From the IMG/VR virus record IMGVR_UViG_3300038429_000331, positions 1 to 50,827 of that record: a stretch of DNA of 50,827 nt; one strand, given 5' to 3'. Shown here piece by piece: positions 28,139 to 47,826 of the stretch; position 1 is the stretch's first letter; every line of letters starts with the position of its first letter. The notes below the pieces were generated by a model, which was given only the letters and a program-made list of their open reading frames with translations, was not told the origin of the DNA and ran no database searches. This stretch comes from a virus (Duplodnaviria; Caudoviricetes). A program made the position numbers and the translations under genes.

Positions 28139-28513
28139 TCACGCGCTCGCCCCGATGTGCGGAAACTTCTCCAGGACGTCGCGCGCATTGAAATGGCCAT
28201 GGTTTTCCGAATTCTTTAAGGCCTTGATCGTTTCGCTTTTCGTTTTTGGTCCTATCCAAAGTTTCAATTTCCTTATGTATTGGAAAAGTGCGTGCGCCAT
28301 TGCATGATGATTTGGACAAAGAAGAATTATGTTATCCTCTTCAAGACTCCCACCCGCATGAACTGGAACAATGTGATGTGCGCAAATAGGGTTTTTCTTG
28401 AATATCTTTTCGGAAGGATTCCAACCGCATACCTCGCATTTGCGAGGCCTTGATCGTTTAACTTGATTGACAATATTATTTCTGGTATTAGAATTGTGCG
28501 GCCTCATATTCAT
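28139..28513 (-). CDS. HNH endonuclease (AT-rich)
   Basis: CEVCG...AHHIVPVHAGG...NIILLCPNHH. Confidence 0.9.
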   Translation of the reverse strand: MNMRPHNSNTRNNIVNQVKRSRPRKCEVCGWNPSEKIFKKNPICAHHIVPVHAGGSLEEDNIILLCPNHHAMAHALFQYIRKLKLWIGPKTKSETIKALKNSENHGHFNARDVLEKFPHIGASA

Positions 28514-28544
28514 GTCTTTCTCCTTTTTGCAGGCGTGTGCAAAC

Positions 28545-28760
28545 TCAATGGTCCTTTCGCCCCGGCGGCTTACGACGTAGCGATTTGATTCCTGCCCAAT
28601 CCATAAGCACTTTCATCCTCTTCGGATCATCCTCAAAGACTTTGGAAAATCGCAGCACTTTATCGATGATAGCGCGTCGTTTCTTCGGACTCATTTTGGT
28701 CCAGATCGTATTAAAGGCCTTGGCAATAGAGATGTTCTTGTTCTGTCGCCCCATCTTCAC
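28545..28760 (-). CDS. Hypothetical basic protein (AT-rich)
   Basis: 71 aa; GTGA-coupled to the VRR-NUC gene. Confidence 0.55.
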   Translation of the reverse strand: MKMGRQNKNISIAKAFNTIWTKMSPKKRRAIIDKVLRFSKVFEDDPKRMKVLMDWAGIKSLRRKPPGRKDH

Positions 28761-33389: not shown

Positions 33390-33842
33390 TCAGCTCAAAC
33401 GCAGGGTCGACATCGGCTCGAGCTTCAGCTCCAGCTGAGCCCGTTCGCCGCCGTCGACGTAGCTCAGCGCCAGGCGCTCGAGCTCTACCAGGTCCAGCGT
33501 GCATTGCGCGCCGAAGCTGGTCGTGTGCGGGCTGTTGATGCAAAGTGGTGCATCCTGGTGCTCGAGCTCGCGCAGGCCGGTAATTACGAGGCCCGTTCCG
33601 TCATCACCGATCGTGCGTGTGATGCCGATGATCGTGAGCTCGTCGATCCAGTCCGCCGGGAGCTCCGCGATCGCAACCAGGTGCTTCGCCATGCGGCCGA
33701 ATTGATTGATCAGCGCGGCGGATGGTTTCTCGGTGCTCTCCAGGGTGATGACGTCGAGCCCTCCGTCCTTGCGCTTGACGTCGTACTTCACGAGGACCTC
33801 AACTCGGTCCCGATCGCATTTGAACTTCAGCAGGCGTCTCAT
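33390..33842 (-). CDS. Hypothetical protein
   Basis: ATG 33842 (MRRLLKFK) with GGAGG RBS; contains LCINSPH and LSYVDGGERAQLEL. Confidence 0.7.
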   Translation of the reverse strand: MRRLLKFKCDRDRVEVLVKYDVKRKDGGLDVITLESTEKPSAALINQFGRMAKHLVAIAELPADWIDELTIIGITRTIGDDGTGLVITGLRELEHQDAPLCINSPHTTSFGAQCTLDLVELERLALSYVDGGERAQLELKLEPMSTLRLS

Positions 33843-35332
33843 TCGGAGGCCTCCTCGAGCACGTCGATGTATTCGGGATCCTTCTGCTTCTCCTGAGCTT
33901 TCAGCAGCGCAGAGGCCGCCTTGCGGGCATCTTTCAGGTCGACGCGGCATATCTTCGCTGCCGCCATGAGCAGCTCGCCTTTTCTCCCCCAGTAACGGGT
34001 TTCGATGTCCCCCGCGATCGTCATCTTCACCAACATGACGAATAGTCCCTTGCGGTCCATCCCGCGGATCCGCTTCTCGACCATGGCTCCCCGCTCCCAT
34101 TGCTCGATCTTGGCTAGTTCATACGACCCCTCACCGTGCTCGGCGAGGTCCAGGACGACCAGCCGAAGTAGTTCGATATCGAGATCCCTCTGCTTCGCGA
34201 CAGCTTCGACCGTCTTTCCGTAGATGATGCATCGGAAAGCCGCATTCAACTTGTGCTTCTGCTCCTCCTTCTCTCGCTGCGCCTTTTCCTTGGCGGCGGA
34301 GATCTGCGGAAGTGCGTGTGAATTGCCATTGCCGCGCACCTTGCCGTAGGTCATGCGCCCGATGCCCTCGCCGGCGACGATCAGGACCTTTTTGGCGCCG
34401 CGATCGTCCTTCTTGCATTCGTTCCAGTCATACGATCCGAGCGCGCCCTTCGGCTTGCCGCCGCCGCTCCAGCCCTTCTCGACCTCGAGGTGAGGGACGT
34501 CCTTCAGCTGTTCTCGTAGCTGATTGAGAAGGGCGGTCTGCTTCTTGGAGAAACAGGCGCGGTCGGTGCAGTAGTCCTTCTTGCCGTCTTTGCTGACGTC
34601 TGCAAAAAGCGCCGGCTGGAATCCTGCTCGTTTCGGACAGAGCTTGCAGGATCCCGCTGAGGGCACGAGGGTTTCGTCGTCCAGCTTCCAGCAGGCCTTC
34701 GAGAGCTCCATGAGGATGGAACGGTGGATCCAGGAATCCAGATCACGCACCGGAATAATCGACCCGTCGCCCCACCGATTGGTGATCCCGTTCTTCAAAA
34801 TTTCCTGCTGCTGCTTTGGCGCCAGACGAGCGATCAGGATCGCGTGCCCCGCGGTGATTTTATCCTTCACGAAGAGATCCCGGGCCTCCGGGACCAGGTC
34901 GAGAAGCTTCAACCGCTGGTAGATGTAGCTGGCCGACTTCCCGACTTCCTTCGCAATCTGCTCGATATCGTAGCCGGCCTTGTCGATGAGCCGCGCGAAT
35001 CCATCCGCCTCATCAAGGGGGTGGACGTCCTCCCGCTGCAGGTTCTCGATCGTCTGGATCTTGAGGACCTGCAGGTCGTCGAGCTCGCGCACGATCGTAG
35101 GGATCTCTGCCAGGCCTGCGAGCTTTGCGGCCCTCCAGCGTCGTTCGCCAGCGACGAGCTCGAAGTCGCCGTTCATCAGTTGCTTGCGCACGATAATCGG
35201 CTGCTGCACACCGACTTCTTTGATCGAGTCCGCGAGCTGCTGGAGCTTCACGGGATCGAAGCCGCCCACGCGGCGGTTGTCTGGATGTGGGATGATCTTC
35301 TCGAGAGAGAGCTGCTGTACTTGCTCGCTCAT
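33839..35332 (-). CDS. ParB/RepB/Spo0J family protein (long, Cys-containing C-terminal region)
   Basis: ATG 35332. Motifs LADSIKEVGVQQPIIVR, LVAGERRWRAA and IENLQREDVHPLDEA, plus an HTH. Confidence 0.9.
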   Translation of the reverse strand: MSEQVQQLSLEKIIPHPDNRRVGGFDPVKLQQLADSIKEVGVQQPIIVRKQLMNGDFELVAGERRWRAAKLAGLAEIPTIVRELDDLQVLKIQTIENLQREDVHPLDEADGFARLIDKAGYDIEQIAKEVGKSASYIYQRLKLLDLVPEARDLFVKDKITAGHAILIARLAPKQQQEILKNGITNRWGDGSIIPVRDLDSWIHRSILMELSKACWKLDDETLVPSAGSCKLCPKRAGFQPALFADVSKDGKKDYCTDRACFSKKQTALLNQLREQLKDVPHLEVEKGWSGGGKPKGALGSYDWNECKKDDRGAKKVLIVAGEGIGRMTYGKVRGNGNSHALPQISAAKEKAQREKEEQKHKLNAAFRCIIYGKTVEAVAKQRDLDIELLRLVVLDLAEHGEGSYELAKIEQWERGAMVEKRIRGMDRKGLFVMLVKMTIAGDIETRYWGRKGELLMAAAKICRVDLKDARKAASALLKAQEKQKDPEYIDVLEEASE

Positions 35333-35345
35333 GATGTTCTCCTTT

Positions 35346-37034
35346 TCATGCGAAGAGCTCCTCGCTCGCGCGGAGCTCGCCCCTTCCGAGGACCTCAACG
35401 AGCTGCCGTGAGCGAAGGCGCTGGATGTAGGTATCGCGACTCGAGCGCTTGTACCCGGTCGATTCCTCGAGGGCTTCGCGAGCGATCGCCCCAGGGTAAG
35501 CCTCAATAAGGTGGGCGAAGATCTTGCGCTCGCCCTCCGGGAGCCGGCTCAGCCAGTGGGCTCGCAGTTCTGCCCCGGTGGCCATCGGCTCGAAGTCAGG
35601 CCCGAGCGCAGCAATGCCTTCTGCGGTTGCCGTGATCGTCGCCCCGACCTGGATGTATCCGCGGGACTGCAGGCGCTGCAGGTACGTATCTCGAGAGCTC
35701 CGCTTGTACCCGGTGAGCACCGTGATCTGCTCGCGGGTGGCTCGTCCCGAATATTGCGCGCAGATGGTCAGGATCGCCTTCTCGCCTGGCGCCAGACGGC
35801 CCTCTGGAGTCTCGGTGGCCCGAGCAGACTGGATCCGAGGCGGTCTGGACGGAAGTGGCACAGGAACCGGCCGGCTGGACGCCTGGACAGGACCTGGCAG
35901 AAGATTTCCGTTGAGCAAGGGAAGGACTTTGTTGAGGTCATCGATTACGCGGCTGATGGCCACCCAGAGCTGTTTCGAGGTCGCCTGCACGGCCTTCTGT
36001 GCCGCCGCATACCCCTGGGCCTGCCCATCCTTGAGTGCCCGTTGCAAGGCCCCGGGATCCTCCGCCGCGGCCGCTGGCTTCTTCGCGAGCTCGGCCTCCA
36101 GCTTAAAGATCTTCCGCTTGAGCTCTCGGGGATCCTCCGCCTTCGCCCGCTCGATCGTGGCCGCCATGCGCTCCTGGAGGATCTTCAGGTCGACCTGAGC
36201 GAGCTTCTTCGGCTCGATCTTCCTCTGCCCTGGCTCAGGCGTCGCGCTGGAGTTGAACGTCTCGCGCTCCCGGACGTGCACGCGCTTGAATAGATCTAGC
36301 CAGCCGGCGGACATGATCCAAGCGTCGCCCAGGGGAAGTGTCGCGAGAGTCTCAGTCACCTGCTCGAGCTGCTTCTCGGTGGCGTGGACTTTCATCCATT
36401 CAAGGATCGGGGCGCGGTCCCGGGGGTGCGCCGTACGCAGTGCGACCAGAACCTCCATCTGGGTCAGAACGTCCTTGTTGAGAACGGCCGATCGCTGGGT
36501 AACGAGCGTGCATCCCAGGCCACGGATCCGTCCGCGCCGCACGATCTCATCGATGGCGCCGAGCATTCTCATTTCATCCGGCCTCGGCTTCTGCGGGCAG
36601 AAGGCGTCCGCCTCATCCATGATCAGGTGAAGCGGGTTGCGGTTCTTGCGGTAAAGCTCCTCGGCGAAGTCGGCAACGAAGCGGCGCATGGCGGACTTCG
36701 AGAAAAGCGACAGATCGATCACCAGCTGCGGCGCCTCGTCCGCCAGGAGCGCGGCGATCACCTTGCCGGCGGCTTCCTCGAGCGGCACGTCCCCGTGGTC
36801 CCCGCCGAGGATCGTTACCGGGTAGCCGACGCCCTTCCCATCCGCGCTGGCCCTCAGCCCCCACCAGGCGCCGGTCGGGTCGAGGACCGCAAACGGCAGG
36901 CTGGCCTTCGAGAACTCCTCCGCGAGCACGGACGCCGTGTACGTCTTGCCGACCCCACGCATTGCCAGGATGGCGAACGTCTGGGTCACGGCCTTCAGGG
37001 GCAGGGAAAGGCCGGTGGCGATATGCAGGGTCAC
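35346..37034 (-). CDS. HerA/FtsK-like (DUF87) ATPase with two C-terminal winged-helix repeats
   Basis: Walker A RGVGKT, VLDPTGAW, Walker B IMDEAD, RGRIRGLG...TQR; TGYKRSSRDTY repeated twice. Confidence 0.85.
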   Translation of the reverse strand: MTLHIATGLSLPLKAVTQTFAILAMRGVGKTYTASVLAEEFSKASLPFAVLDPTGAWWGLRASADGKGVGYPVTILGGDHGDVPLEEAAGKVIAALLADEAPQLVIDLSLFSKSAMRRFVADFAEELYRKNRNPLHLIMDEADAFCPQKPRPDEMRMLGAIDEIVRRGRIRGLGCTLVTQRSAVLNKDVLTQMEVLVALRTAHPRDRAPILEWMKVHATEKQLEQVTETLATLPLGDAWIMSAGWLDLFKRVHVRERETFNSSATPEPGQRKIEPKKLAQVDLKILQERMAATIERAKAEDPRELKRKIFKLEAELAKKPAAAAEDPGALQRALKDGQAQGYAAAQKAVQATSKQLWVAISRVIDDLNKVLPLLNGNLLPGPVQASSRPVPVPLPSRPPRIQSARATETPEGRLAPGEKAILTICAQYSGRATREQITVLTGYKRSSRDTYLQRLQSRGYIQVGATITATAEGIAALGPDFEPMATGAELRAHWLSRLPEGERKIFAHLIEAYPGAIAREALEESTGYKRSSRDTYIQRLRSRQLVEVLGRGELRASEELFA

Positions 37035-40000
37035 GCCGCGGTCCTCTTCATCTCGATCTTCTGCCCGATCGCCTCCTGGACCTCGGGCGAGTGCGTGATC
37101 ACGATCGTGTTTCTGCGCCCGCTCTCCTGATGCGCGGCCTCGAGCATCGTGAAGTACTTCTGGCGGGATTCAGGATCCAGCGCGCCATCCGCCTCGTCAG
37201 CGAACACAGTGAGGAACCGGATCCCTGTCGTGCGATCGCGGATAATGGCGAATGCGTCGAAAAGTGCACGGTAGATCCATACGCGCTCACCGCCGCTGAG
37301 CGTCTCGATCGGCTGCTCAGTCAGGAGCTCGTTGTCGATCACGATGATTGAGAAATCCTCGATCTGACGGGTTTTTGCGCCTTTGCCAGCAATGCGCGTC
37401 GTGCGGAATTCCACGGAGAACCGTGAGCCGTAAGCAGATGAGAGCATTCTGTTCGTGACTTCCGCGATCGAAGGCCCGAGTGCATCCAGCTCGAGCGCCT
37501 GGATCCCGTCGGGCCCGCAGGCCTGCTCGAGGTAGCGCCACTCCGCGGCCTCGGCCTCCGTCTTCGCCAGTGAGGTCCTCAGCTGCTCAAGCTCGCACTT
37601 CTGCTTTGCGATTGCCTCGAGCTGTTTCAGCGCGGCCTCCAGCTTCGCCGCGGCGGTCGCACGCTCCTCCTTGGCCGCGGTATAGGCCGTCCGAGCGGCC
37701 TCGTATTGCTTCAGAGCTTCGGCGTGGGCCGGCCGGATTTTCGGATCCAGCTGGGCGCGGAGGTCCTCGGCCTTCCGCGATAGAGCAGCTGCGTCGCCTT
37801 CCAGCGCGGCGATCTGGACGTTGAGCCTGTCGATCTCCTGCTCGGCTTTCGCCGCGGTCTCAAGCGTCGCCCGGGCCGTGACGACATCGATCTGTCGTAG
37901 TACCGTACGGATCCTCGTGAGCTCTGTCTCGTCGGCCTCTGGCAGCTTCGGTGGCGTCGGATTCGCCGGGTCCTTGATCACGATGAGCTCGGCCTCTTTG
38001 GCCATGATCTGATTGCCGAGAGTGTGGATCTTCTTCCTGATCGCCTTCAGCTGCGCGTCCTTCTCTGCGCGGCCCGCGTTGAGATCCTTGTGCCAGTGCT
38101 CTTTCCCGGCTCCGCACTCGGGGCATTCGTCGGTCAGCGGCTGCGCGAGCTCCTCCTGGAGAGTCTCGCCCTGGGAAAGAAGAACTCGGTGATCGCCCTC
38201 CAGGCGCGCCTTCTCCGTGCGGATCCTGGTGCGCTGCACTTCGAGTCCTTTGACATCAGCTGCATGAGCCTTGAGCGTGTCTCCATACTCAGCGCTGAAT
38301 CGGGCTCGCTCGGCATTGATCGCTGAAAGCCGCTCATTCTCGGCGCCCTCCTGTTCCTTCAGTTTCGCGTGACGATCGACATCGGCCTGCGCCTGGTCGC
38401 GCTGTGAAAGGGATACCTGGTAGCCCTTGATCGCCCTCTGTGCGGCCTGTACCTGGCTGAGCTTCTTCTGCGCATCATCCGCCGCGGCAGCGATGTCCTT
38501 TCCGATCTGATCCTGTTGGGCGACGTCCTTCGCGAGCTGCTCGACCTCCGCCTTCAGCTGCTTGCCCTGCTCTACTGCCTTCCCAATCGCGACGTCGGCT
38601 TCGTACACGTCGACGTCCGCCTGGAACTTCGATGCCTGAACGTTCGGCTCTTCCGCGACCAGCCGCTCCATGAGAGTGATCTGACCGCGGCCGACTGTGA
38701 CCTGGCTCTCCAGCGCAACAGCCCGCGCCTTCGCGCTCTCGCTGTAGGCCTGGATGTAGTCCAGCCCGGCGAGCTCGCGGAAGATGGCCTTCTTCTCGCC
38801 CTTCGTGGCGTCCGACAGATCCGGGTTGCTCTTTGTTGGCCGCTGGCTGACAAACGCGGACCGGAGGAACAGTGGGAGGCTGCCGATCAGCTTCTCGATG
38901 GCAGTCTCATATTCCTCTTTCCTCCCGTTCGTGAGCGGGATCCAGCCGAGACAGAGCTCGGCGGGACGGTCCGGCGGATCGCCGTGGAACAGGTGGTACT
39001 TCACGCTGCCGCTGGTGTTCGCGCCGTCGATCTCAATGAGCGCTCGGTATTCGGTCCCGGTGCGCTCGTCCACGAACCAGAGCTCCCGCGCCGAATCGCG
39101 AAGCCGGAAATGATCCTGCAGCTTGCCGTCGCGCGTGAGCATGCAGGGGTATGGGTGCATGTTCTCGATGAGCGTGGACTTACCGGCGCCGTTGGCCCCG
39201 ATGAGCGCGATGAGTCCCGGATCCTTCTTGTCCAGATCGATGTCGATCTCGTCCTGGCGGAGGCCCTTCCAAATCCCTACGGCCCCCCGGAGGCGCAGGC
39301 GGCGCAAGCGGAAGTGCATGCCCGCGGCCGCGCCCCGCTCCTCTGCCTCGCGTTCCAATACTGCTGCCTTCAGCTCGACGGAGGTCGGAACGTTGTAGCC
39401 CTGGCCGCTCGCTTCGGCGTAGATTGAGAGTTTCTCTGCCAGCCGATGCTTCTCCGTGATCTCCGCCGCGCGCACGGTCTCCGTCGGAATGAGGTCCACC
39501 GTCACGCGGGAGCCGGGAAGCGCGCCTGCCAGCAAGTAGGAATTGAGGTAGGACATAGTATCGATCTTCGCGGCCTCCTCCTTCGTCGCTCGATAGCAGA
39601 CCCACGCTTGCACGCCTTCAACATCGCCGGCCGGCTCGGGCCAAGGGAGGGAGAACTTCACGCGCCGCGGATGCGGGAACGGAATGCGCTCAACTTTCGG
39701 CGGAATCCCGGGGCCTTCGAGCGTGACCAAGTTGCAGCCGCATGTTCCCAGGTGGCCCCAGTCGGTGTGGTAGGCAGGCCCAGGGTAATAGGCTTCGAGG
39801 CCGTCGATCTTCTGCTCAAGGTGGACATGGCCAAGAGCCGCATAATCAAATCCCGCGAGTTGGAGATCCTCGCGCCCGATGCCGTCTGCGGAGACGGTGC
39901 GATTCTGGAGCGTAGAACCCTGAACCGATCCGTGGAAAAGGAGAATCGCAGGAAATTCAGGCTGGGCTGCGCGCATGGCACCAAAACTCAGCAGAATAGA

Positions 40001-40447
40001 TCGAACACTTTCTGAGAGTTTCCGATTTGATTCGTCTGCGCTGAGATCCTGCTCGCCAGCAAGGAGCCATTCTTTTCCTGCTTCCGGCATTCCGAAGAAC
40101 ATGATTCCAGCGACAACCTGAGCATCATCGGGGCGCAGATTGATGAAGCGATGCCCCGCTTCCAACTCGCACAGAACGTCATACGCCCCTGGTACGTCGT
40201 GAGTGACGGTGCCCTCGATCGACAGGATTGGGGCGACTTCGAGCATGCGCTGAATCACGTTCACGAGCCGCGGGAATCCCGCACTATGTGAATTCTGAAC
40301 GCCGCGGTCAAAGAGATCTCCCGCGAACGCCCAGGCGTCGATCTGCTCGCGCGTTCCTACTTCCAGTGCACATTCAAGACTGGCGATCGCGAGATCTTGA
40401 TTCTCTTTCGAGAAATGCACGTCTGCAAGGTGAATCATTTTTTTCAT
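37031..40447 (-). CDS. Fused SbcD (Mre11-like phosphoesterase) - SbcC (Rad50-like ABC ATPase)
   Basis: N-terminal ADVH, AGDLFD and ALGHVH; then GANGAGKS, coiled coil with CPEC zinc hook, LSGGE, DEADGALD and ITH, all in one frame. Confidence 0.93.
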   Translation of the reverse strand: MKKMIHLADVHFSKENQDLAIASLECALEVGTREQIDAWAFAGDLFDRGVQNSHSAGFPRLVNVIQRMLEVAPILSIEGTVTHDVPGAYDVLCELEAGHRFINLRPDDAQVVAGIMFFGMPEAGKEWLLAGEQDLSADESNRKLSESVRSILLSFGAMRAAQPEFPAILLFHGSVQGSTLQNRTVSADGIGREDLQLAGFDYAALGHVHLEQKIDGLEAYYPGPAYHTDWGHLGTCGCNLVTLEGPGIPPKVERIPFPHPRRVKFSLPWPEPAGDVEGVQAWVCYRATKEEAAKIDTMSYLNSYLLAGALPGSRVTVDLIPTETVRAAEITEKHRLAEKLSIYAEASGQGYNVPTSVELKAAVLEREAEERGAAAGMHFRLRRLRLRGAVGIWKGLRQDEIDIDLDKKDPGLIALIGANGAGKSTLIENMHPYPCMLTRDGKLQDHFRLRDSARELWFVDERTGTEYRALIEIDGANTSGSVKYHLFHGDPPDRPAELCLGWIPLTNGRKEEYETAIEKLIGSLPLFLRSAFVSQRPTKSNPDLSDATKGEKKAIFRELAGLDYIQAYSESAKARAVALESQVTVGRGQITLMERLVAEEPNVQASKFQADVDVYEADVAIGKAVEQGKQLKAEVEQLAKDVAQQDQIGKDIAAAADDAQKKLSQVQAAQRAIKGYQVSLSQRDQAQADVDRHAKLKEQEGAENERLSAINAERARFSAEYGDTLKAHAADVKGLEVQRTRIRTEKARLEGDHRVLLSQGETLQEELAQPLTDECPECGAGKEHWHKDLNAGRAEKDAQLKAIRKKIHTLGNQIMAKEAELIVIKDPANPTPPKLPEADETELTRIRTVLRQIDVVTARATLETAAKAEQEIDRLNVQIAALEGDAAALSRKAEDLRAQLDPKIRPAHAEALKQYEAARTAYTAAKEERATAAAKLEAALKQLEAIAKQKCELEQLRTSLAKTEAEAAEWRYLEQACGPDGIQALELDALGPSIAEVTNRMLSSAYGSRFSVEFRTTRIAGKGAKTRQIEDFSIIVIDNELLTEQPIETLSGGERVWIYRALFDAFAIIRDRTTGIRFLTVFADEADGALDPESRQKYFTMLEAAHQESGRRNTIVITHSPEVQEAIGQKIEMKRTAA

Positions 40448-40929
40448 GATGCTGCCTGCCTTTCGTTGCTGTGCAGGCGCGTATGGCACCGATCACAGAG
40501 AATGAGCAGGTTGGATGGATCATGATTCGGTCTGGCGCTGGTGCGTCCCATGCCGTCGATATGATGGACCGTCAGTTCGCGACCGAAGGTAGCCTTATGC
40601 TCGGCGTTGCTTATGCCGCAGTGAGTGCATCCGTCACGTTCTCTCCGCTCGATTACTTCAGGATGAGCTCCGAAGTGGTACTTCTGTTGGTAGCGCCTGA
40701 TGTACTCGCGCGACTTCTGGAGATTTTTCCTCCAATACCATTTCGAATAACATTTCTCACAGAGGCCGTGGCCAGTGATGATTCCAACCGTTCCGCATCC
40801 AGAGCAGGCCCTTATCTTTTCGGGCTTCATGGGGATGCCTTGTTCCCGTCTCTGCCGTCTCTTGTAGCAGCGCAGACAGAGATCCTTAAAATCAATTTCT
40901 CTTTCGTTACAATCCATGCAGAGCTTCAT
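40444..40929 (-). CDS. HNH endonuclease with Cys-rich N-terminus
   Basis: CTHCG, LTVHHIDG, NLLILCDRCHTRLH. Confidence 0.88.
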   Translation of the reverse strand: MKLCMDCNEREIDFKDLCLRCYKRRQRREQGIPMKPEKIRACSGCGTVGIITGHGLCEKCYSKWYWRKNLQKSREYIRRYQQKYHFGAHPEVIERRERDGCTHCGISNAEHKATFGRELTVHHIDGMGRTSARPNHDPSNLLILCDRCHTRLHSNERQAAS

Positions 40930-43096: not shown

Positions 43097-44073
43097 GCCG
43101 GTGACCTCCCGAGAATCGCAACATCCGATCCACCCTGTTCGACAGCCAAGAATTTCCCGTCGCCGTAGGTAATTGCTGTCCAGAAATTCTCCGATGGCAG
43201 GTTATCGAGATACCAATGCACCCCATCAGCAGATACAGCCGCCGTGCTGGTCGGCTGGCTGTTCGTCTCGCAGGAGACGACGACAAACTCGCCACCTCCC
43301 GCAGTGATAGCCTGCCAACACGTCACGCCTGGAAGCTGCACCAGCGTCCAATCGACTCCATTCGGCGATACCGCGGCGGAAGAACTCTCCTCTGAAATTG
43401 CTACGAACTCTCCATCGCCAAACGTCACCGATTCCCAACAGAGGACGGCGGGCATCTTTTCTATTTGCCAATGGATTCCGTCTATTGACGTCACCGCGGC
43501 ATCAGAGTTTCTGGCAGGGGCCGTCCCCTGGGCGACAGCGACAAACTTGCCATCACCGCACGTGACCGATTGCCACTCTGCAGCCTTAGGTAGTTTCTCC
43601 AAAGTCCAGTGCTGCCCGTCGGGAGAGGTTGATATGAGATCGTTCGCACTTCCGCCACCAGAGAAGGCAACGAACAATCCATCGCCATAGGTGATCGAGT
43701 ACCAATCCGCAGCCGCGCCCAGGTCAGCTGTCGACCAGGTCTTTCCGTCGACAGACCAGATCGCGATTGAGCTCCCGTACGCGATCGCGACGAATCTACT
43801 GTCGCCGAATGTCACAGCCTCCCAGGCTTCTACCGGGACGCTGTATGAGGTCCACGCGACTCCATCGCTCGAAACGTGGTCGAGAGATCCATCCCATTCG
43901 AGCGTGACAAAGATCCCGTTTCCGTAGGTGACGCTCTCGCAAGAGACCTGAGATAGCGAGGAAGGCTGCCAACTGCTCGACTGGGGAATCACTGGATTCT
44001 GAACCGTTGGCGCGGCGACGCTGCAGCCGATTGTCAGGATCAGAATCCCCAGGAGCAGAAGGACCTTCTTCAT
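43093..44073 (-). CDS. Lipoprotein with repeated beta-propeller-like blades
   Basis: MKKVLLLLGILILTIG-C lipobox; about seven repeats of W.SVT(Y/F)GDG.FVA...S.DG..W; lower GC than flanks. Confidence 0.8.
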   Translation of the reverse strand: MKKVLLLLGILILTIGCSVAAPTVQNPVIPQSSSWQPSSLSQVSCESVTYGNGIFVTLEWDGSLDHVSSDGVAWTSYSVPVEAWEAVTFGDSRFVAIAYGSSIAIWSVDGKTWSTADLGAAADWYSITYGDGLFVAFSGGGSANDLISTSPDGQHWTLEKLPKAAEWQSVTCGDGKFVAVAQGTAPARNSDAAVTSIDGIHWQIEKMPAVLCWESVTFGDGEFVAISEESSSAAVSPNGVDWTLVQLPGVTCWQAITAGGGEFVVVSCETNSQPTSTAAVSADGVHWYLDNLPSENFWTAITYGDGKFLAVEQGGSDVAILGRSPA

Positions 44074-44324
44074 GCAGGCCTCACAGAACGGCCAGGGCGA
44101 GGGCGGGGTGCCCCGCCCTGGTCCGGGATCTCGATCACAGCCTCACGGGTATTGCGCCGCGCGTACTCTTGAGCCTGGGCCTTGGTGACGCGGTAGCCAG
44201 CGCCGACACGGATGCAGCCGAGGCGCTTCGCGGCGATCTCGCGGTACAACGTCTTCGCTGAAACGCGGAAGCATTCAGCAACTTCGGGAACGGTGTTGAT
44301 GTCGGCGAGCTGCTCGAGGGTCAC
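44070..44324 (-). CDS. xis: Excisionase-like HTH protein
   Basis: TVPEVAECFRVSAKTLYREI...LGCIRVGAGYRV. Confidence 0.75.
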   Translation of the reverse strand: MTLEQLADINTVPEVAECFRVSAKTLYREIAAKRLGCIRVGAGYRVTKAQAQEYARRNTREAVIEIPDQGGAPRPRPGRSVRPA

Positions 44325-44512
44325 GCAGATACCGCCTTTCGCTTTTCCTCGCGATCCAGCTTCTCCAGGATTGCCAGACGAGCGAATCCGCCCTGGGTCT
44401 GCTCGTTGCCATCGCAGAAATCCAGGAAGTGCTGCAGTTCGTTGCCCTTGAACGGAACCCTCAAGAGCTTTCCCTTGACTCTGTCCGCTTGCGGTCTTTT
44501 TATCCTGTTCAC
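44321..44512 (-). CDS. Small RHH-like regulator, first gene of the leftward operon (Cro/Arc role)
   Basis: LLRVPFKGNELQHFLDFC...GGFARLAILEKL; GTG start lies 7 nt after the -10 box. Confidence 0.65.
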   Translation of the reverse strand: MNRIKRPQADRVKGKLLRVPFKGNELQHFLDFCDGNEQTQGGFARLAILEKLDREEKRKAVSA

Positions 44513-44518
44513 GATTAG

Positions 44519-44547
44519 ATTATGTCCTGATACGGACTATTTGTCAA
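44519..44547 (-). promoter_or_regulatory. Leftward sigma70-type promoter
   Basis: TTGACA (44547-44542), 17-nt spacer, CATAAT (44524-44519). An inverted repeat GTCC-N6-GGAC spans 44524-44537. Confidence 0.8.
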
Positions 44548-44567
44548 GCAACTTTTATATTTTTTTG

Positions 44568-44596
44568 TTGCGTTATGGTTTTCTTGTCAGTATAAT
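44568..44596 (+). promoter_or_regulatory. Rightward sigma70-type promoter
   Basis: TTGCGT, 17-nt spacer, TATAAT; T-rich UP-like element upstream. Confidence 0.75.
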
Positions 44597-44631
44597 GAGT
44601 TATTGAATCCTGGGAGGGGGCGGAGAAGCGT

Positions 44632-44733
44632 TTGCACAGGTTTCTCGAAAGCCTCGACAGGGTTCTTGACGAACGAGAAGAACGTCGGCCTTGGCTCGCA
44701 AAGACATCAGGCGTTCCGCTTAGAGTCCGGTGA
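44632..44733 (+). pseudogene. Truncated XRE/CI-like HTH repressor fragment (33 aa)
   Basis: GGAG RBS then TTG: LHRFLESLDRVLDEREERRPWLAKTSGVPLRVR*. Resembles HTH helices 1-2 and stops just before the att core. Confidence 0.55.
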
Positions 44734-44735
44734 TC

Positions 44736-44785
44736 GCGGTGGCTGTTAACCACTAGGTCGCTGGTTCGAGTCCGGCCGGGGGAGC
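44736..44785 (+). other. attP core = 3' half of tRNA-Asn(GTT)
   Basis: Anticodon arm GGTGG-CT-GTT-AA-CCACT, variable loop AGGTC, T arm GCTGG-TTCGAGT-CCGGC, acceptor 3' strand CGGGGGA-G. No matching 5' strand or D stem; adjacent to the integrase. Confidence 0.85.
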
Positions 44786-44816
44786 GAAAAGAATGACGGC
44801 GAAAAGAAATAGAGAG

Positions 44817-44841
44817 AGGCTCCTGGAGAGGGAGCCTTTTT
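44817..44841 (+). terminator. Intrinsic terminator downstream of the att core
   Basis: AGGCTCC-N7-GGAGCCT-TTTT. Confidence 0.75.
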
Positions 44842-44849
44842 CATGCCCG

Positions 44850-44882
44850 ATGGATCGCAAATGGATTGCAGACGTTTGCAAA
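44850..44882 (+). repeat. Three tandem 11-bp imperfect repeats; candidate integrase arm-type sites
   Basis: ATGGATCGCAA / ATGGATTGCAG / ACGTTTGCAAA. Similar copies at 44628-44638 and 44691-44701. Confidence 0.5.
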
Positions 44883-44896
44883 TCCGGGAGTGAACC

Positions 44897-46178
44897 ATGA
44901 CGTACCCCAAGCCGTTCAAACGTCCCGGGCGCAAGACCTACTCCTTCATGTATGCGGATCCCGATGGGACCCGCCGTCTGGTTTCGACGGGCTGTGAGAG
45001 ACGCAGCGACGCCGACGACTTCGTGCGCAACTACGTTGACGCGCGAAGCTCGCGCAGCGGAAACATCACGTTCGGAGAGTACCAGGTCCCGTTCTACAAA
45101 CCTGACATCTGCCCCCACGTCCAGCGGCTCCGCGATTCCAGACGTTCAATCGGGTTGACGCACATCGTGAAATGCCGGCAGTGGCTCGATCGTTGGATCG
45201 TCCCGGACAAGCTCTTCATGGCGAGGCCGATGAACAGGATCACCCGCGGAGATCTCCTGGAGCTCCGCGGCCGAGTGCGGGCCCGCGTGAAGGTGGATTC
45301 GAAGCGGATCCGCGGGGACGGGATGAACACCGTGAACAAGGCCATGAGCGCGGTCTTCACCGTTTTTGCCGAGGCCGCCTTCCGCCAACACATCCCGGCA
45401 AACCCCGCGGCCGATATCGGGAATGTGCTCTATGATCTTGAAGAGCGTGAGGTCCTCTCCCTCGAGGAGCTCGAGCAGCTCTTCGCGAAGCCATGGGAAA
45501 GCCGGCTCGCGTTCGATGTATTCCGCTTTGCCGAGCTCACCGGTATGCGCTGCAGCGAGATCCTATCCATAGTGCCTTCTGCCCAGCTGCGCGGCGACGT
45601 CCTGCAGGTGGATACCGCATTCAAGGGAAAGGAGCGCGGGAAGCCGAAGTGGGGAAAGACCAGAACGATAGTGCTCTGTGCGGCCGCGCTCGAGATCCTT
45701 TCCCGCCGCCCGGGCGGTTTCCGATACGAGGATGGACGACGTTTGGGTGAGACCTGGTGGCGCGACGGCAGAATTGAATTACACTATAAATGTCTTAGAG
45801 GACGAATTGTGTCTCTATTTGCACTTGAAATGTAATAAATAGGAGCGTTCATATGGATAGTGTGGCAGCCAGCACTTCGCAACAGGTCTCGAGGATCGGG
45901 AGCTCAAGCTCGGGAATCGTATTCTCACGCCGCACTGCCTCCGGCATTCTTTGAACACGCACCTGTTGGACGCCGGCGTGGATCCGCTGAAGGTCCAGCT
46001 CTATCTGTGGGGCAAGACCGCCGACGACGCCGAGCAAGGAAAGACAAGCAGGTTGACGAAGACGCAGGCGATCTACACCCACCTTCTCGATCGAATGACA
46101 GAGCCGGTGGCTCAGGCAATCGAAAAACTCTACAAAGCGGGGAAGGGCATGTCCGAGAAGGCCTCAGGGACCGCATAA
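44897..46178 (+). pseudogene. int: Tyrosine integrase interrupted by a ~100-nt insertion
   Basis: N-part (to about 45763) has LTGMRCSEI and a K-containing PKWGKTR. The C-part in another frame has HCLRHSLNT and the catalytic Tyr in TQAIYTH. Confidence 0.9.
45764..45869. other. AT-rich structured insertion in the integrase
   Basis: Core 45772-45863 is 29/92 G+C. It is flanked by GGCAG direct repeats (45767, 45864) and has an internal inverted repeat ACACTAT/ATAGTGT. Confidence 0.85.
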
Positions 46179-46182
46179 CCGC

Positions 46183-46218
46183 GGCGCGCCCCCGCCCCAT
46201 ATCCGGGAGCGCGCCTTT
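46183..46218 (+). terminator. Hairpin between the convergent integrase and lysis genes
   Basis: GGCGCGC...GCGCGCC followed by TTT. Confidence 0.5.
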
Positions 46219-46850
46219 CAAAACTTGTGGAAGAGATCTCCGCCCAGCTTTATCACGAAAGCAGCGCCCGCACCGATCCCCGCGCCCGCGGCTGCGGACA
46301 CGGCATCCTTCCCCGCCGCAGCTCCGCCGATCGCTCCTGCCGCGGCGCCGACGGCTGCCCAGGTCGTGTAATCAGTCAGTACCCGGTGCGCTCGCTCCTG
46401 CGCCAGCTGCTGGTTGAGCAGCTGCTGTGCTGATTCCGAGGCTTTGACATAGTCGCTGAATGTCGCTGATTCCTTTGTCTGCGCTGCCTGCAATGATTCG
46501 TATGCGCTCTGCGTCTGTTGTCGCGCTGCTTCCGAGACTGCCAAGTCCGATTTGGATTTGTCCGATATCGACTTGTTCTCGTCCAAGAGCCGAGCTGAGG
46601 TCGCTTGCAAGTTTGCTATTTGCTGCGGCCATGTCTGCAAGTCCGAGCCGAGCAGCGCCGAGAGCTCTTTGACTGTCAGCAGCTGCTTCAATGAATCCAG
46701 TATCAGCGACTGCTGCAGCGGCGTTAGCTGCGGCGAGCTGCTTTGCGATTGGGCTGAAAGGCCGGGCAAGCACCAGGTAGCAAAGAAAAGCGCCAGCAAG
46801 AGCGCCGGCCACCACGAGGATGGCCGGCAGAAGGAGCTTGCGCACCTCAC
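46218..46850 (-). CDS. Spanin-like protein: signal peptide, coiled coil, C-terminal glycine zipper
   Basis: GTG 46850 overlaps the holin stop. Contains PALLLALFFATWCLPGLSAQ, a Q/S/A-rich coil and AVGAAAGAIGGAAAG. Confidence 0.6.
   Translation of the reverse strand: MRCASSFCRPSSWWPALLLALFFATWCLPGLSAQSQSSSPQLTPLQQSLILDSLKQLLTVKELSALLGSDLQTWPQQIANLQATSARLLDENKSISDKSKSDLAVSEAARQQTQSAYESLQAAQTKESATFSDYVKASESAQQLLNQQLAQERAHRVLTDYTTWAAVGAAAGAIGGAAAGKDAVSAAAGAGIGAGAAFVIKLGGDLFHKF
46372..46845 (-). CDS. i-spanin-like protein nested in another frame of 46218-46850
   Basis: MRKLLLPAILVVAGALAGAFLCYLVL TM helix followed by an Ala-rich coil; last gene position in the lysis cassette. Confidence 0.55.
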   Translation of the reverse strand: MRKLLLPAILVVAGALAGAFLCYLVLARPFSPIAKQLAAANAAAAVADTGFIEAAADSQRALGAARLGLADMAAANSKLASDLSSALGREQVDIGQIQIGLGSLGSSATTDAERIRIIAGSADKGISDIQRLCQSLGISTAAAQPAAGAGASAPGTD

Positions 46851-47238: not shown

Positions 47239-47826
47239 TCACGAAACCATTCGGCTCTTCACGTCCTGACGGAATGTGTCGACCAGGGCCGGCTGACTCG
47301 TCCAGAGCCGCGGGCAGTCCTTCCAGCCGACCACCTGGTGGTGCGTGGCCAGGTCAACGAGGGGATCCAGCTGCAAACGTCGGCAGATGTCCGCGGCGAG
47401 TTCGCCCGCGGCGTCCAGCGTCTGAACGGTGAAAGTTCCCGGGGCGTCGATCGGCTCCATCTCAATGCCCAGTGTGCAGATGTTCGGGCCGATACTCTGC
47501 GGGTCGTCGATGTGAACACCGAACTTTGCTCGCGCCCAGTCGGTGTAGATCTTTCCGCTCGCCGGATCGACCTGGTTGCTTCCTACGTGGTAAGCGACCT
47601 CGCTCTCGGGGATGCAGCGGATGATCGATCCGTCCATATCGATGATGTAGTGCGCAGAGCCGTAGCCGGTGGTGCCGTTCTTTCGGTCCTCGAAATACTG
47701 GCGAGTTTCGATGGCGCGCTGCCGGGGGACCGCGGTCCAATGCATGATCAACGCAAGCGCGGAATGCAGTGGTGTCCCCGGTCTCGAAAACGTGTTGATC
47801 GTGAGAAGGTTCTCGGTGATGTTCAT
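47239..47826 (-). CDS. Endolysin, N-acetylmuramoyl-L-alanine amidase (Amidase_2)
   Basis: IMHWTA, SAHYIID.DG, AYHVG, LGIEM, THHQVVGWKDCP. Confidence 0.92.
   Translation of the reverse strand: MNITENLLTINTFSRPGTPLHSALALIMHWTAVPRQRAIETRQYFEDRKNGTTGYGSAHYIIDMDGSIIRCIPESEVAYHVGSNQVDPASGKIYTDWARAKFGVHIDDPQSIGPNICTLGIEMEPIDAPGTFTVQTLDAAGELAADICRRLQLDPLVDLATHHQVVGWKDCPRLWTSQPALVDTFRQDVKSRMVS

Follow-up and report, generated by a model that had tools for sequence, protein, structure and literature searches.

The window, i.e. the whole stretch of 50,827 nt that was analysed, is the IMG/VR virus record IMGVR_UViG_3300038429_000331 (Caudoviricetes). It carries a lysogeny module in which the integrase gene, the only one of the record, is interrupted. 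The features of this locus are the following.

44070..44324, minus strand: excisionase-like helix-turn-helix gene of the same lysogeny module (PF12728 HTH_17, 33.9 bits, cut-off 27)
44738..44786, plus strand: attP core, matching Spirochaetota tRNA-Asn genes without a difference over their 3' part, from the anticodon stem to the 3' end
44897-46178, plus strand: tyrosine integrase gene, interrupted
44897..45763, plus strand: integrase N-terminal piece, 289 codons ending in GETWWR, with the box-I Arg (TGMRCSE) and the beta-hairpin Lys region (GKPKWGKTR)
45764..45869, plus strand: insertion of 106 nt, consisting of GACGGCAG, a 92-nt AT-rich core and GGCAGC
45870..46178, plus strand: integrase C-terminal piece, 102 codons and stop, from QHF onwards, with HCLRH (His-x-x-Arg), LWG and IYTH (Tyr nucleophile)

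The attP core occurs once in the record, and phage genes flank it on both sides, namely the excisionase-like, an SbcC-like and a ParB-like gene on the left and an endolysin gene on the right. With a single attP and phage genes on either side, the record is thus the unintegrated form of the phage. The excisionase-like gene also matches phrog_66, ‘excisionase and transcriptional regulator’. Side-by-side comparison by eye showed that attP is identical to tRNA-Asn over about 49 nt and that the 5' half is unrelated. ARAGORN calls a tRNA-Asn at 44714-44785, whose 5' half is unlike the host tRNA and whose Rfam score is 19.1 bits against a cut-off of 29. A 37-nt exact word of attP was found in 10 genome contigs, nine of them from Spirochaetia, Spirochaetota or Spirochaetaceae MAGs and one labelled Coriobacteriaceae. 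In 5 of 10 of these tRNA-Asn loci, the distance from the tRNA end to the start of a homologous integrase is about 100-140 nt, as it is here. This attP ties the phage group to peat Spirochaetia.

In the case of the integrase gene, the open reading frame 44897..45835 ends in ...GETWWRDGRIELHYKCLRGRIVSLFALEM and is terminated by TAA TAA. The frame from 45861/45864 reads (C)GSQHFATGL...HCLRH...IYTH... up to the stop at 46178. Both frames agree with the original prediction, in which the integrase was described as running into AT-rich DNA and stopping at 45835, with the motifs HCLRH and YTH intact in another frame. The N-terminal piece is 58-59% identical to the intact integrases P0002-P0004 and collinear with them in alignments. 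The catalytic Arg, Lys, His-x-x-Arg, His/Trp and Tyr are all in the DNA, but not in one polypeptide: TGMRCSE and KWGKTR lie in the N-terminal piece, HCLRH, LWG and IYTH in the C-terminal piece, and the frame-breaking insert with two stops lies between them. The roles of these residues are those that we take to hold throughout the family, together with the alignments of the homologues, and LTPHSLRHS of P0002 aligned with the HxxR of PDB 4a8e, an XerC-like recombinase. In the profile search, the C-terminal piece reached 22.5 bits with PF00589 (19.8 bits in a six-frame search; cut-off 27.1) and the N-terminal piece gave no match, whereas the intact homologue P0002 (58% identical) scored 51.4 bits. 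The assignment of the pieces to the family is therefore based on their homology to members. No second recombinase was detected, the whole record having one PF00589 locus and no resolvase.

The extent of the insert could be defined by the homologues. The codons on either side of the break are CGC for Arg (45761-45763) and CAG for Gln (45870-45872), and in the alignments GETWWR is followed directly by QHF in 19 of 19 homologues, with zero residues at the break. These homologues are four of the six proteins from a protein-cluster search and 15 of the 19 homologous ORFs. Excluded were P0005, a 270-aa fragment that ends before the break site, the ORFs L033, L035 and L043, the matches of which also end before it, and L034, a fragment (229 aa) of a match that contains an internal stop. 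Two deletions had been put forward earlier, and the homologue alignment chose between them: removal of 106 nt is backed by all 19 homologues and gives, as calculated before, 289 + 102 = 391 aa, whereas removal of 97 nt from GGCAG to GGCAG leaves an extra Asp-Gly-Ser (394 aa). The 106-nt boundary can slide by at most 2 nt to the left because of a shared GC.

The 92-nt core (45772-45863) contains 29 G+C, the count first reported, compared to 62.3% G+C for the record. Of all other 92-nt windows of the record, only an intergenic one (44516-44607) is lower, and the insert stands out as a separate block at whose borders the composition changes sharply. Read in the integrase frame, the insert contributes 23 foreign codons, after which TAA TAA follows (45833-45838). 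The following sequence elements, which had been pointed out, are present. The direct repeats GGCAG at 45767 and 45864 are both inside the inserted DNA, as judged from the homologue alignment, and a terminal 5-nt direct repeat arises in 6.4% of end-shuffles, so that GGCAG is weak evidence. The inverted pair ACACTAT/ATAGTGT starts 18 nt inside the left end of the insert (10 nt into the core) and ends 6 nt short of the right end, on the last base of the core; a further pair is CTATTT/AAATAG. An AGGAG-N7-ATG lies at 45841-45855, with TAATAA upstream, and its ATG (45853) is in a third frame, i.e. that of neither integrase piece; AGGAG-N5-9-ATG appears in 1.5% of insert shuffles. The idea of a ‘portable promoter’ was dropped, since a promoter scan of the insert gave no sigma-70-like site.

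That the insert is real DNA is shown by several runs assembled independently of one another. In the runs X1, X5 and X7, separately assembled contigs run across both junctions, and in X6 a contig crosses the left junction, in each case with 0 differences. In detail, a single X1 contig spans all 1201 nt, a 1531-nt contig of X5 covers 45510-46400, and X7 has two contigs, one per junction; X5, X6 and X7 are not flagged as possible sources of the record. Sampled words of the record were found to 100% in four runs and to at least half in 12 of 24 runs, and runs X19-X24 contained a share of 0.05-0.12 of these words. The identical allele, with zero differences, occurs in runs dated 2018 and 2020. The option of a sequencing or assembly chimera, raised by the original prediction only and without support here, is refuted by these contigs; furthermore, the sequence re-enters the same gene at an exact codon boundary. 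We give it a negligible chance.

Insert-free DNA was looked for in the same material. No insert-free joint or indel was present in the contigs of the four runs compared; a minority insert-free form would have escaped here, given that rare variants are lost from contigs and that the depth was no more than 2-8. Likewise, 5.8 billion protein clusters held no insert-free allele, the next-best integrase being 58-59% identical, so the damaged allele is the only one known. The viral-contig and genome-contig collections held no close relative of this integrase, and there is consequently no empty-site allele closer than 58%. No RNA data sets were listed among the runs with words of the record.

These observations bear on the possibility that the insert is removed from DNA or RNA, which would turn the integrase on in part of the genomes or transcripts. 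Removal could proceed by recombination between the GGCAG repeats, or by cut-and-ligate splicing guided by the flank helix GAGACCUG/CAGGUCUC. Apart from the direct repeats at the insert ends, its attraction lies in the coding flanks, where a perfect 8-bp inverted repeat brackets the site and the predicted fold with flanks closes the insert by an exon-exon helix. Such a flank repeat appears in 0.95% of shuffles. However, the missing insert-free joints, contigs and protein alleles speak against removal and leave the proposed excisable switch without support. Site-specific and homologous recombination systems use far more than five bases of homology, and we know of no bacterial mRNA splicing of the cut-and-ligate kind.

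Folding is a further argument against removal. The insert had been called structured, and this did not hold, as it folds no better than its shuffles: the minimum free energy of the insert was -16.3 kcal/mol, that of the shuffles -19.6 on average (z +1.10), and 175 of 200 shuffles fold as well or better. For the insert with flanks z was +0.41, for the minus strand -1.32, and for four local pieces of 51-61 nt +0.57 to +1.12. Rfam 15, used with permissive filters and E<=10 on 44500-46400, gave 4 matches, none overlapping 45764-45869. Thus, the insert matched no RNA family described in Rfam 15, be it a group I/II intron or a small self-cleaving ribozyme, and the proposed micro-intron is left with neither a family nor a fold above chance. 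Altogether we consider removal of the insert, by whichever route, to be extremely improbable.

Another explanation is that the insert is one member of a new family of mobile elements, non-autonomous and very small, and landed in the integrase by chance, its mover being a transposase or nuclease encoded elsewhere. MITEs and other small bacterial repeats are about 100 nt long, AT-rich and have short direct repeats at their ends, and the insert resembles them in all three respects. Its sharp composition borders would suit such an element, as would the GGCAG repeat at both ends, the reappearance of the left target (GTGGCGC) in imperfect form at the right end (GTGGCAGC, by eye), and the rare flank inverted repeat, which none of 15 homologous genes shares, their longest being 6 nt. 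The record also has a low-G+C HNH endonuclease gene (28139-28513), its only HNH gene, 17 kb from the insert. In contrast to MITEs and small bacterial repeats, however, the insert has no terminal inverted repeats (by eye). In the case of a MITE-like target-site duplication, GGCAG does occur twice, but the shuffle frequency given above is not significant and both copies are part of the inserted DNA.

No second copy was found in any of the collections searched, 406 Spirochaetota genomes among them. In the record itself there was the self-match only, and five candidate host genomes gave only 18-19-nt matches (E 0.9-6). Among 401 Spirochaetota genomes, 60 had a match at E<=0.1 per genome, where about 40 are expected by chance; the best had E 0.001 and none spans more than 40 of the 106 nt. 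Matches of 27 nt recur in these genomes, and they were rejected as element copies because the two inspected (L016, L023) are AT-rich intergenic DNA. The phage collection returned 27-nt matches (E 4) and the plasmid collection a best match of 43 nt (E 0.3). The latter concerns four places in plasmid DNA of Deinococcus sp. QL22 (81% identity), which is at chance level and was kept as a lead only. Three exact 20-22-mers had 0 matches in seven scans of viral, genome and metagenome collections, scans blind to copies with a divergence above a few percent. The insert is therefore unique within everything searched, and no donor of the fragment was found in these collections. The original suggestion of a tiny mobile element thus gained no support, nor did the check for copies or an RNA family return any. 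We regard this explanation as unlikely, and the notion of a first copy of a new hairpin-targeting micro-element is unsupported.

A translational explanation was weighed as well. In a programmed bypass, peptidyl-tRNA-Gly would leave GGC 45767-45769, slide over 97 nt and re-pair with GGC 45864-45866. The product would be a 394-aa integrase (...WWRDGSQHF...), and the process might serve to regulate lysogeny. The codons for take-off and landing are identical and correctly framed, no GGC or GGU lies between them (by eye), the gap is AU-rich with in-frame stops and an internal AGGAG, and the C-terminal frame is intact. A GGA (45855-45857) is followed by 6 nt and then the landing GGC 45864. This agrees with the mini-SD triplets of gene 60-type cassettes, for which a spacing of 5-7 nt before the landing codon is reported (bioRxiv 10.1101/2022.08.31.505936). 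By a rough estimate such a spacing has a chance occurrence of nearly 1 in 5. Phage bypass set off by a rare codon instead of a stop has also been described (bioRxiv 10.1101/2022.08.31.505936; PMC10732093).

The T4 gene 60-type cassette (Manning and Atkins, bioRxiv 10.1101/2022.08.31.505936) shares with our locus a non-coding AU-rich block inside a phage gene, matched Gly codons, in-frame stops, an SD-like element and GGA 6 nt upstream. Gaps of this type are reported to measure about 20-50 nt and to lie in a MobA homing-endonuclease element within a topoisomerase gene. Here, on the contrary, the gene is an integrase, there is no MobA-type neighbour or other adjacent homing-endonuclease gene, and no homologous cassette was found. 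With 97 nt, the gap has roughly double the length of that in T4 (50 nt) and is far longer than those of the other reported cases (10-20 nt). No take-off stem-loop is predicted (45750-45800 and 45755-45815 have -5.6 and -7.7 kcal/mol, z +0.96 and +1.12), and the strong SD (AGGAG) lies 18 nt from the landing codon instead of 5-7. The candidate take-off codon is, as had been stated at the outset, not followed by a stop as in gene 60. The next codon is AGA, which is not starved by the codon usage of the record, where it makes up 36 of 11,704 codons (3.1 per 1000; 35 genes) and is used three times in the N-terminal piece itself.

A second comparison is with the terminase of Streptomyces phage phiHau3, where UUA inserts of about 10 nt are reported to start with the very rare UUA and are proposed to couple expression to the host state (PMC10732093). 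Both cases concern short inserts that break the frame of a phage gene which is essential or bears on life-style, in phages whose hosts are high in G+C, but ours has 97-106 nt and its sole UUA in the integrase frame (45779-45781) comes three codons past GGC and not adjacent to it. TTA accounts for 9 of 11,704 codons in the record.

Finally, the GGC-to-GGC product would interrupt a conserved stretch by Asp-Gly-Ser, three residues beyond every homologue, as 19 of 19 homologues lack any residue there, and no second example that would show conservation was found. The bypass raised in the original prediction is thus unsupported, and we hold it to be very improbable. If it were true, its 97 nt would far exceed every bypass known, no integrase would have shown one before, and lysogeny would depend on the translational state of the host. 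The features reminiscent of a bypass cassette (the matched GGC pair, the AU-rich gap, the in-frame stops and GGA) were counted against reading the locus as a dead gene.

Among the options listed originally, the evidence favours a recent dead insertion. We consider it probable that a captured foreign fragment truncated the integrase before HxxR and the Tyr nucleophile and left an integration-defective phage. According to this explanation, 106 nt of unrelated AT-rich DNA entered the sole integrase gene between the Arg and Gln codons. The fragment resembles a gene junction of another genome, with an ORF end, TAA TAA, AGGAG, 7 nt and ATG, and may have been joined in by end-joining or template switching at a break. 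Translation now stops after the 23 foreign codons, and the 312-residue product keeps the DNA-binding parts, the box-I Arg and the Lys hairpin and lacks His-x-x-Arg, Trp/His and the tyrosine nucleophile. Because of this loss the product presumably cannot cut and rejoin DNA.

There is no route for reading through, given the two in-frame stops, the TAG at 45858-45860 that closes the C-terminal frame upstream, the third-frame ATG 45853 and the late TTG 45951. The downstream piece has no start of its own, its first in-frame start being this TTG, past HxxR. The idea of a split protein was dropped for the same missing start, and a frameshift from ATG 45853 into the integrase frame was dropped as no slippery heptamer was seen by eye. 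The 102 downstream codons are still open with every catalytic motif kept, and GC3 is alike in both pieces (C-terminal 0.748, N-terminal 0.785). This indicates that the event is recent or that the C-terminal piece is still in use. The unexplained 8-bp inverted repeat of the flanks and the fragment source, which was not found, were also counted against the dead-gene reading, as were the unchanged allele of 2018 and 2020, the damaged allele being the only one known, and the minority forms that contigs would miss.

The interrupted integrase has counterparts in the insertion-inactivated int pseudogenes of defective or ex-temperate phages. They share a single int beside attP and an excisionase-like gene, and extra DNA that shifts the frame, brings stops and severs the catalytic half. 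In our case, however, the interrupter is neither an IS element nor a recognisable repeat, has only 106 nt, is unique and differs strongly in composition, and the gene is not otherwise decayed. Judged by the large terminase (57% identity), the closest relative in IMG/VR is a complete genome with terminal repeats, and it had no PF00589 match, the controls being positive in 14 of 14 genomes, which implies that the integrase is dispensable in this lineage.

Altogether, the truncation suggests that the phage can no longer integrate at the tRNA-Asn attB in peat Spirochaetia and that it may persist unintegrated, as a lytic or episomal phage. If this explanation is true, the event is an ordinary gene loss, and wide interest would attach only to the unlikely bypass or micro-element readings. 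It would nevertheless mean that a phage which software labels as ‘temperate’ by its integrase pieces, excisionase and attP probably cannot integrate, and that such an integration-defective phage has stayed unchanged in peat across several sampling years. It would also mean that small unique foreign insertions can be real and fixed in uncultured phage populations, and not assembly noise.

Two separate frames carry the integrase. ORF 44897..45835 encodes its N-terminal part up to GETWWR (the N piece), continues into DGRIELHYKCLRGRIVSLFALEM and stops at TAA TAA. A second frame (the C piece) reads (C)GSQHFATGL...LTPHCLRHSLNTHLL...LYLWG...AIYTH... to a stop at 46176-46178, and is closed upstream by a TAG at 45858-45860. 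The 92 nt between two GGCAG copies hold 29 G+C, the second lowest count among all 92-nt windows of the record. The split frames and the low-G+C core are thus present as originally predicted, and the small repeats listed with them were all found in the insert region.

The exact boundary of the insert was obtained from homologues. When the N piece was compared with 5.8 billion protein clusters, 6 proteins were obtained from 2,418 candidates. One of these, P0001, is the window's own truncated ORF (100% identical, insert-encoded tail included), four are full-length integrases of 367-412 aa at 58, 58, 59 and 39% identity, and P0005, a 270-aa fragment, was left out of the alignments because it ends before the break site. 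Additionally, 301 genomes of the candidate host's class gave 22 matches in 20 genomes (30-42% identity), from which 19 ORFs were extracted and the 15 reaching past the break site were used. In the alignments, the N piece ends at the ...TWWR column and the adjoining column opens the C piece (QHF / KxF), with no residue between them in 19 of 19 homologues. The insert therefore spans 106 nt, 45764-45869, and its boundary can slide leftwards by at most 2 bases, both ends being preceded by GC. The original prediction had offered 106 nt or 97 nt, the latter by removal between the GGCAG repeats; only the former agrees with the homologues. Removing 97 nt would leave Asp-Gly-Ser in a conserved stretch that is empty in every homologue, thus both GGCAG copies are part of the inserted DNA. 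When the 12-nt insert ends are shuffled, 6.4% of shuffles share a 5-nt repeat. The coding flanks contain an 8-bp perfect inverted repeat, GAGACCTG/CAGGTCTC (45749-45756 with 45883-45890), which brackets the insertion site; shuffles yield one in 0.95% of cases, and 15 of 15 homologous genes lack it, their longest such repeat being 6 nt.

Regarding the possibility of an assembly chimera, 24 runs were found to contain part of 45400-46200, all of them peat, wetland, freshwater, sediment or soil metagenomes. Of the words sampled from this region, 12 runs contain half or more and four contain all. Contigs of four runs (X1, X5, X6 and X7) were compared with the region; no RNA run was among the listed runs. 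In X1, the possible source of the record, a single contig spans all 1,201 nt with 0 differences, and in X5 a 1,531-nt contig spans 45510-46400, also with 0 differences. Two contigs of X7 bridge the left and the right junction, and one of X6 bridges the left junction, stopping 1 nt beyond the insert. Several samples, each assembled separately, thus contain the insert as real DNA, which rules out a chimera. Samples carrying it date from 2018 and 2020, and the insert-bearing allele is the only one known, identical across the samples compared. No joints, indels, other letters or insert-free alleles were reported in the contigs of these four runs, at depths of only 2-8; a minority insert-free form could be missed there because of these depths and because contigs drop rare variants.

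A tiny mobile element had also been considered, and copies of the insert in other genes or genomes were sought. None was found in the record, phage, plasmid, host or Spirochaetota searches. In detail, the record gave only the self-match, the phage collection only 27-nt matches (E 4), and five candidate host genomes only 18-19-nt matches (E 0.9-6); the nearest IMG/VR relative gave no match. Three exact 20-22-mers of the insert had 0 matches in three viral, two genome and two metagenome scans, which may skip records nearly identical to the window. Of 401 Spirochaetota genomes, 60 matched at E<=0.1 per genome versus about 40 by chance; the best match had E 0.001, and none covered over 40 of the insert's 106 nt. 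At least seven of these genomes (G279, G135, G128, G170, G079, G156 and G114) carry a 27-nt AT-rich word (insert positions 50-77, 89%), mostly at two places each. The two copies examined (L016, L023) are intergenic, within AT-rich DNA. This word may represent a regulatory sequence conserved among those low-G+C genomes. In the case of the plasmid collection, a 43-nt, 81% match (E 0.3) was found at four places on three Deinococcus sp. QL22 replicons; as the score is at chance level, it is a mere lead to a donor type. A low-G+C patch repeated at all four places (among them plasmid NZ_CP097151.1, locus L044, 2501-2540) resembles insert positions 55-97. At the site examined (H4), the match takes in the Shine-Dalgarno site and the ATG GAT AG start with which an unannotated 79-aa ORF begins.

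The insert had further been described as structured. Its plus-strand RNA fold is weaker than the shuffle mean (z +1.10; equalled or surpassed by 175 of 200 shuffles), and neither the insert with flanks (z +0.41), the minus strand (z -1.32) nor four local pieces (z +0.57 to +1.12) fold better than shuffles to any extent that bears out this description. Rfam 15 with permissive filters gave no match to a known RNA within the insert, and a consensus scan detected no promoter-like site there.

Three observations favour something more than a dead gene: the C piece shows no damage and has a GC3 (0.748) similar to that of the N piece (0.785), the insert-bearing allele is the only one known and is unchanged across samples, and the 8-bp inverted repeat brackets the site. 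In a bypass reading, a ribosome would pass from GGC to GGC over a 97-nt gap. The insert was compared with features that Manning and Atkins derived from dozens of gene 60-type cassettes (bioRxiv 10.1101/2022.08.31.505936), whose gaps are 20-50 nt. Matched take-off and landing codons, an AU-rich gap, in-frame stops within it and a GGA triplet that precedes the landing codon by 6 nt are shared with such cassettes. However, the gap is far longer, no stop or starved codon follows take-off (AGA makes up 36 of 11,704 codons and is used three times in the N piece), local folds show no take-off stem-loop, no homing-endonuclease gene adjoins, and the product would keep three extra residues relative to 19 of 19 homologues, so that the homologous protein is not restored. 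The phiHau3 terminase (PMC10732093) shows that bypass set off by a rare codon is plausible in principle for phages of high-G+C hosts, but there about 10 nt are crossed compared with 97 here. Altogether, we regard translational bypass as very improbable.

The record is linear, 50,827 nt long, 100% complete (CheckV) and has 62.3% G+C. PHROG and Pfam scans of 20 larger ORFs identify a tailed phage:

Several ORFs: baseplate wedge and hub, tape measure, head protease, portal and large terminase (PHROG/Pfam)
28139-28513, minus: HNH endonuclease (PF01844, 34.7 bits)
33839-35506, minus: ParB-like protein, left of the lysogeny module (phrog_4715, E 2e-42)
37031-40489, minus: SbcC-like nuclease, 1,152 aa, left of the lysogeny module (phrog_77, E 5e-41)
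44070-44324, minus: excisionase-like HTH_17 protein (PHROG/Pfam scan)
47239-47826, minus: amidase endolysin (PHROG/Pfam scan)

The integrase is on the plus strand and nearly all other genes are on the minus strand. No second PF00589 locus and no resolvase were found in the record. The HNH gene lies within a patch of about 35-45% G+C (island ~28200-28760) just upstream of the terminase genes, the sole other strongly low-G+C coding stretch besides the insert. The lowest-G+C stretch of the record (44516-44607, intergenic, 27/92 G+C) lies between the excisionase-side genes and attP; its minus strand carries TTGACA-17-CATAAT, a strong promoter-like site.

The tRNA-Asn called by ARAGORN at 44714-44785 reaches only 19.1 bits in Rfam versus a cut-off of 29. 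A 37-nt word from its 3' part matches 10 genome contigs exactly; the titles of nine name Spirochaetia, Spirochaetota or Spirochaetaceae MAGs, several of them of peat or fen origin, and one is labelled Coriobacteriaceae. Side by side, about 49 nt (44738-44786), anticodon stem through 3' end, are identical to Spirochaetota tRNA-Asn, and the window's 5' half bears no relation to the host tRNA. Such a half-tRNA with a foreign 5' half is the usual look of an attP that rebuilds the tRNA upon integration. Judged by sequence, the call is a half-tRNA and the phage attP, not a working tRNA gene. Five of the ten host loci have a homologous integrase that begins 100-140 nt from the tRNA end, and the window shows this spacing too. 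The attP core occurs once and phage genes flank both sides; the window is therefore the unintegrated form. The Coriobacteriaceae-labelled MAG contig (L008) begins with a Spirochaetota-type tRNA-Asn 3' half at 20-56, preceded by unrelated sequence and followed by an integrase (179-967, 32% identical); it resembles a further attP or a prophage end and may have been binned to the wrong genome. The nearest relative by large terminase (G661, the IMG/VR record behind locus L046; 57% identity), complete at 53,979 nt and with terminal repeats, lacks a tyrosine integrase in a search that detected one in 14 of 14 control genomes. The group as a whole thus does not share the lysogeny module.

As a mechanism, the ribosome would read 23 foreign codons in the insert and then stop. 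The 312-aa product would lack His-x-x-Arg, Trp/His and the Tyr nucleophile, all in the C piece, where HxxR was placed by alignment of the homologue P0002 to the solved XerC-like recombinase 4a8e. The C piece cannot start alone because its frame opens only at 45861 and its first start, TTG 45951, is past HxxR; the ATG behind AGGAG is in the third frame. A tyrosine recombinase without these C-terminal catalytic residues cannot carry out strand exchange, and we infer that the phage cannot integrate. Loss of integration fits the attP-form record and the integrase-less nearest complete relative. Speculatively, the ParB-like gene could serve episomal maintenance, leaving room for episomal carriage.

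Concerning origin, the 3' part of the insert reads TAA TAA AT AGGAG CGTTCAT ATG (AGGAG-N5-9-ATG occurs in 1.5% of insert shuffles) and looks like the end of one gene with the ribosome site and start of the next. Given this gene-junction look, the insert is read as a piece captured from a lower-G+C genome, which may have been joined in at a break or via template switching; its donor was not found in the collections searched. Overall, we consider it probable that a real, unique and fixed 106-nt insertion inactivated the sole integrase of this peat Spirochaetia phage. Inactivating insertion is a known kind of event, of which this allele would be a new instance.
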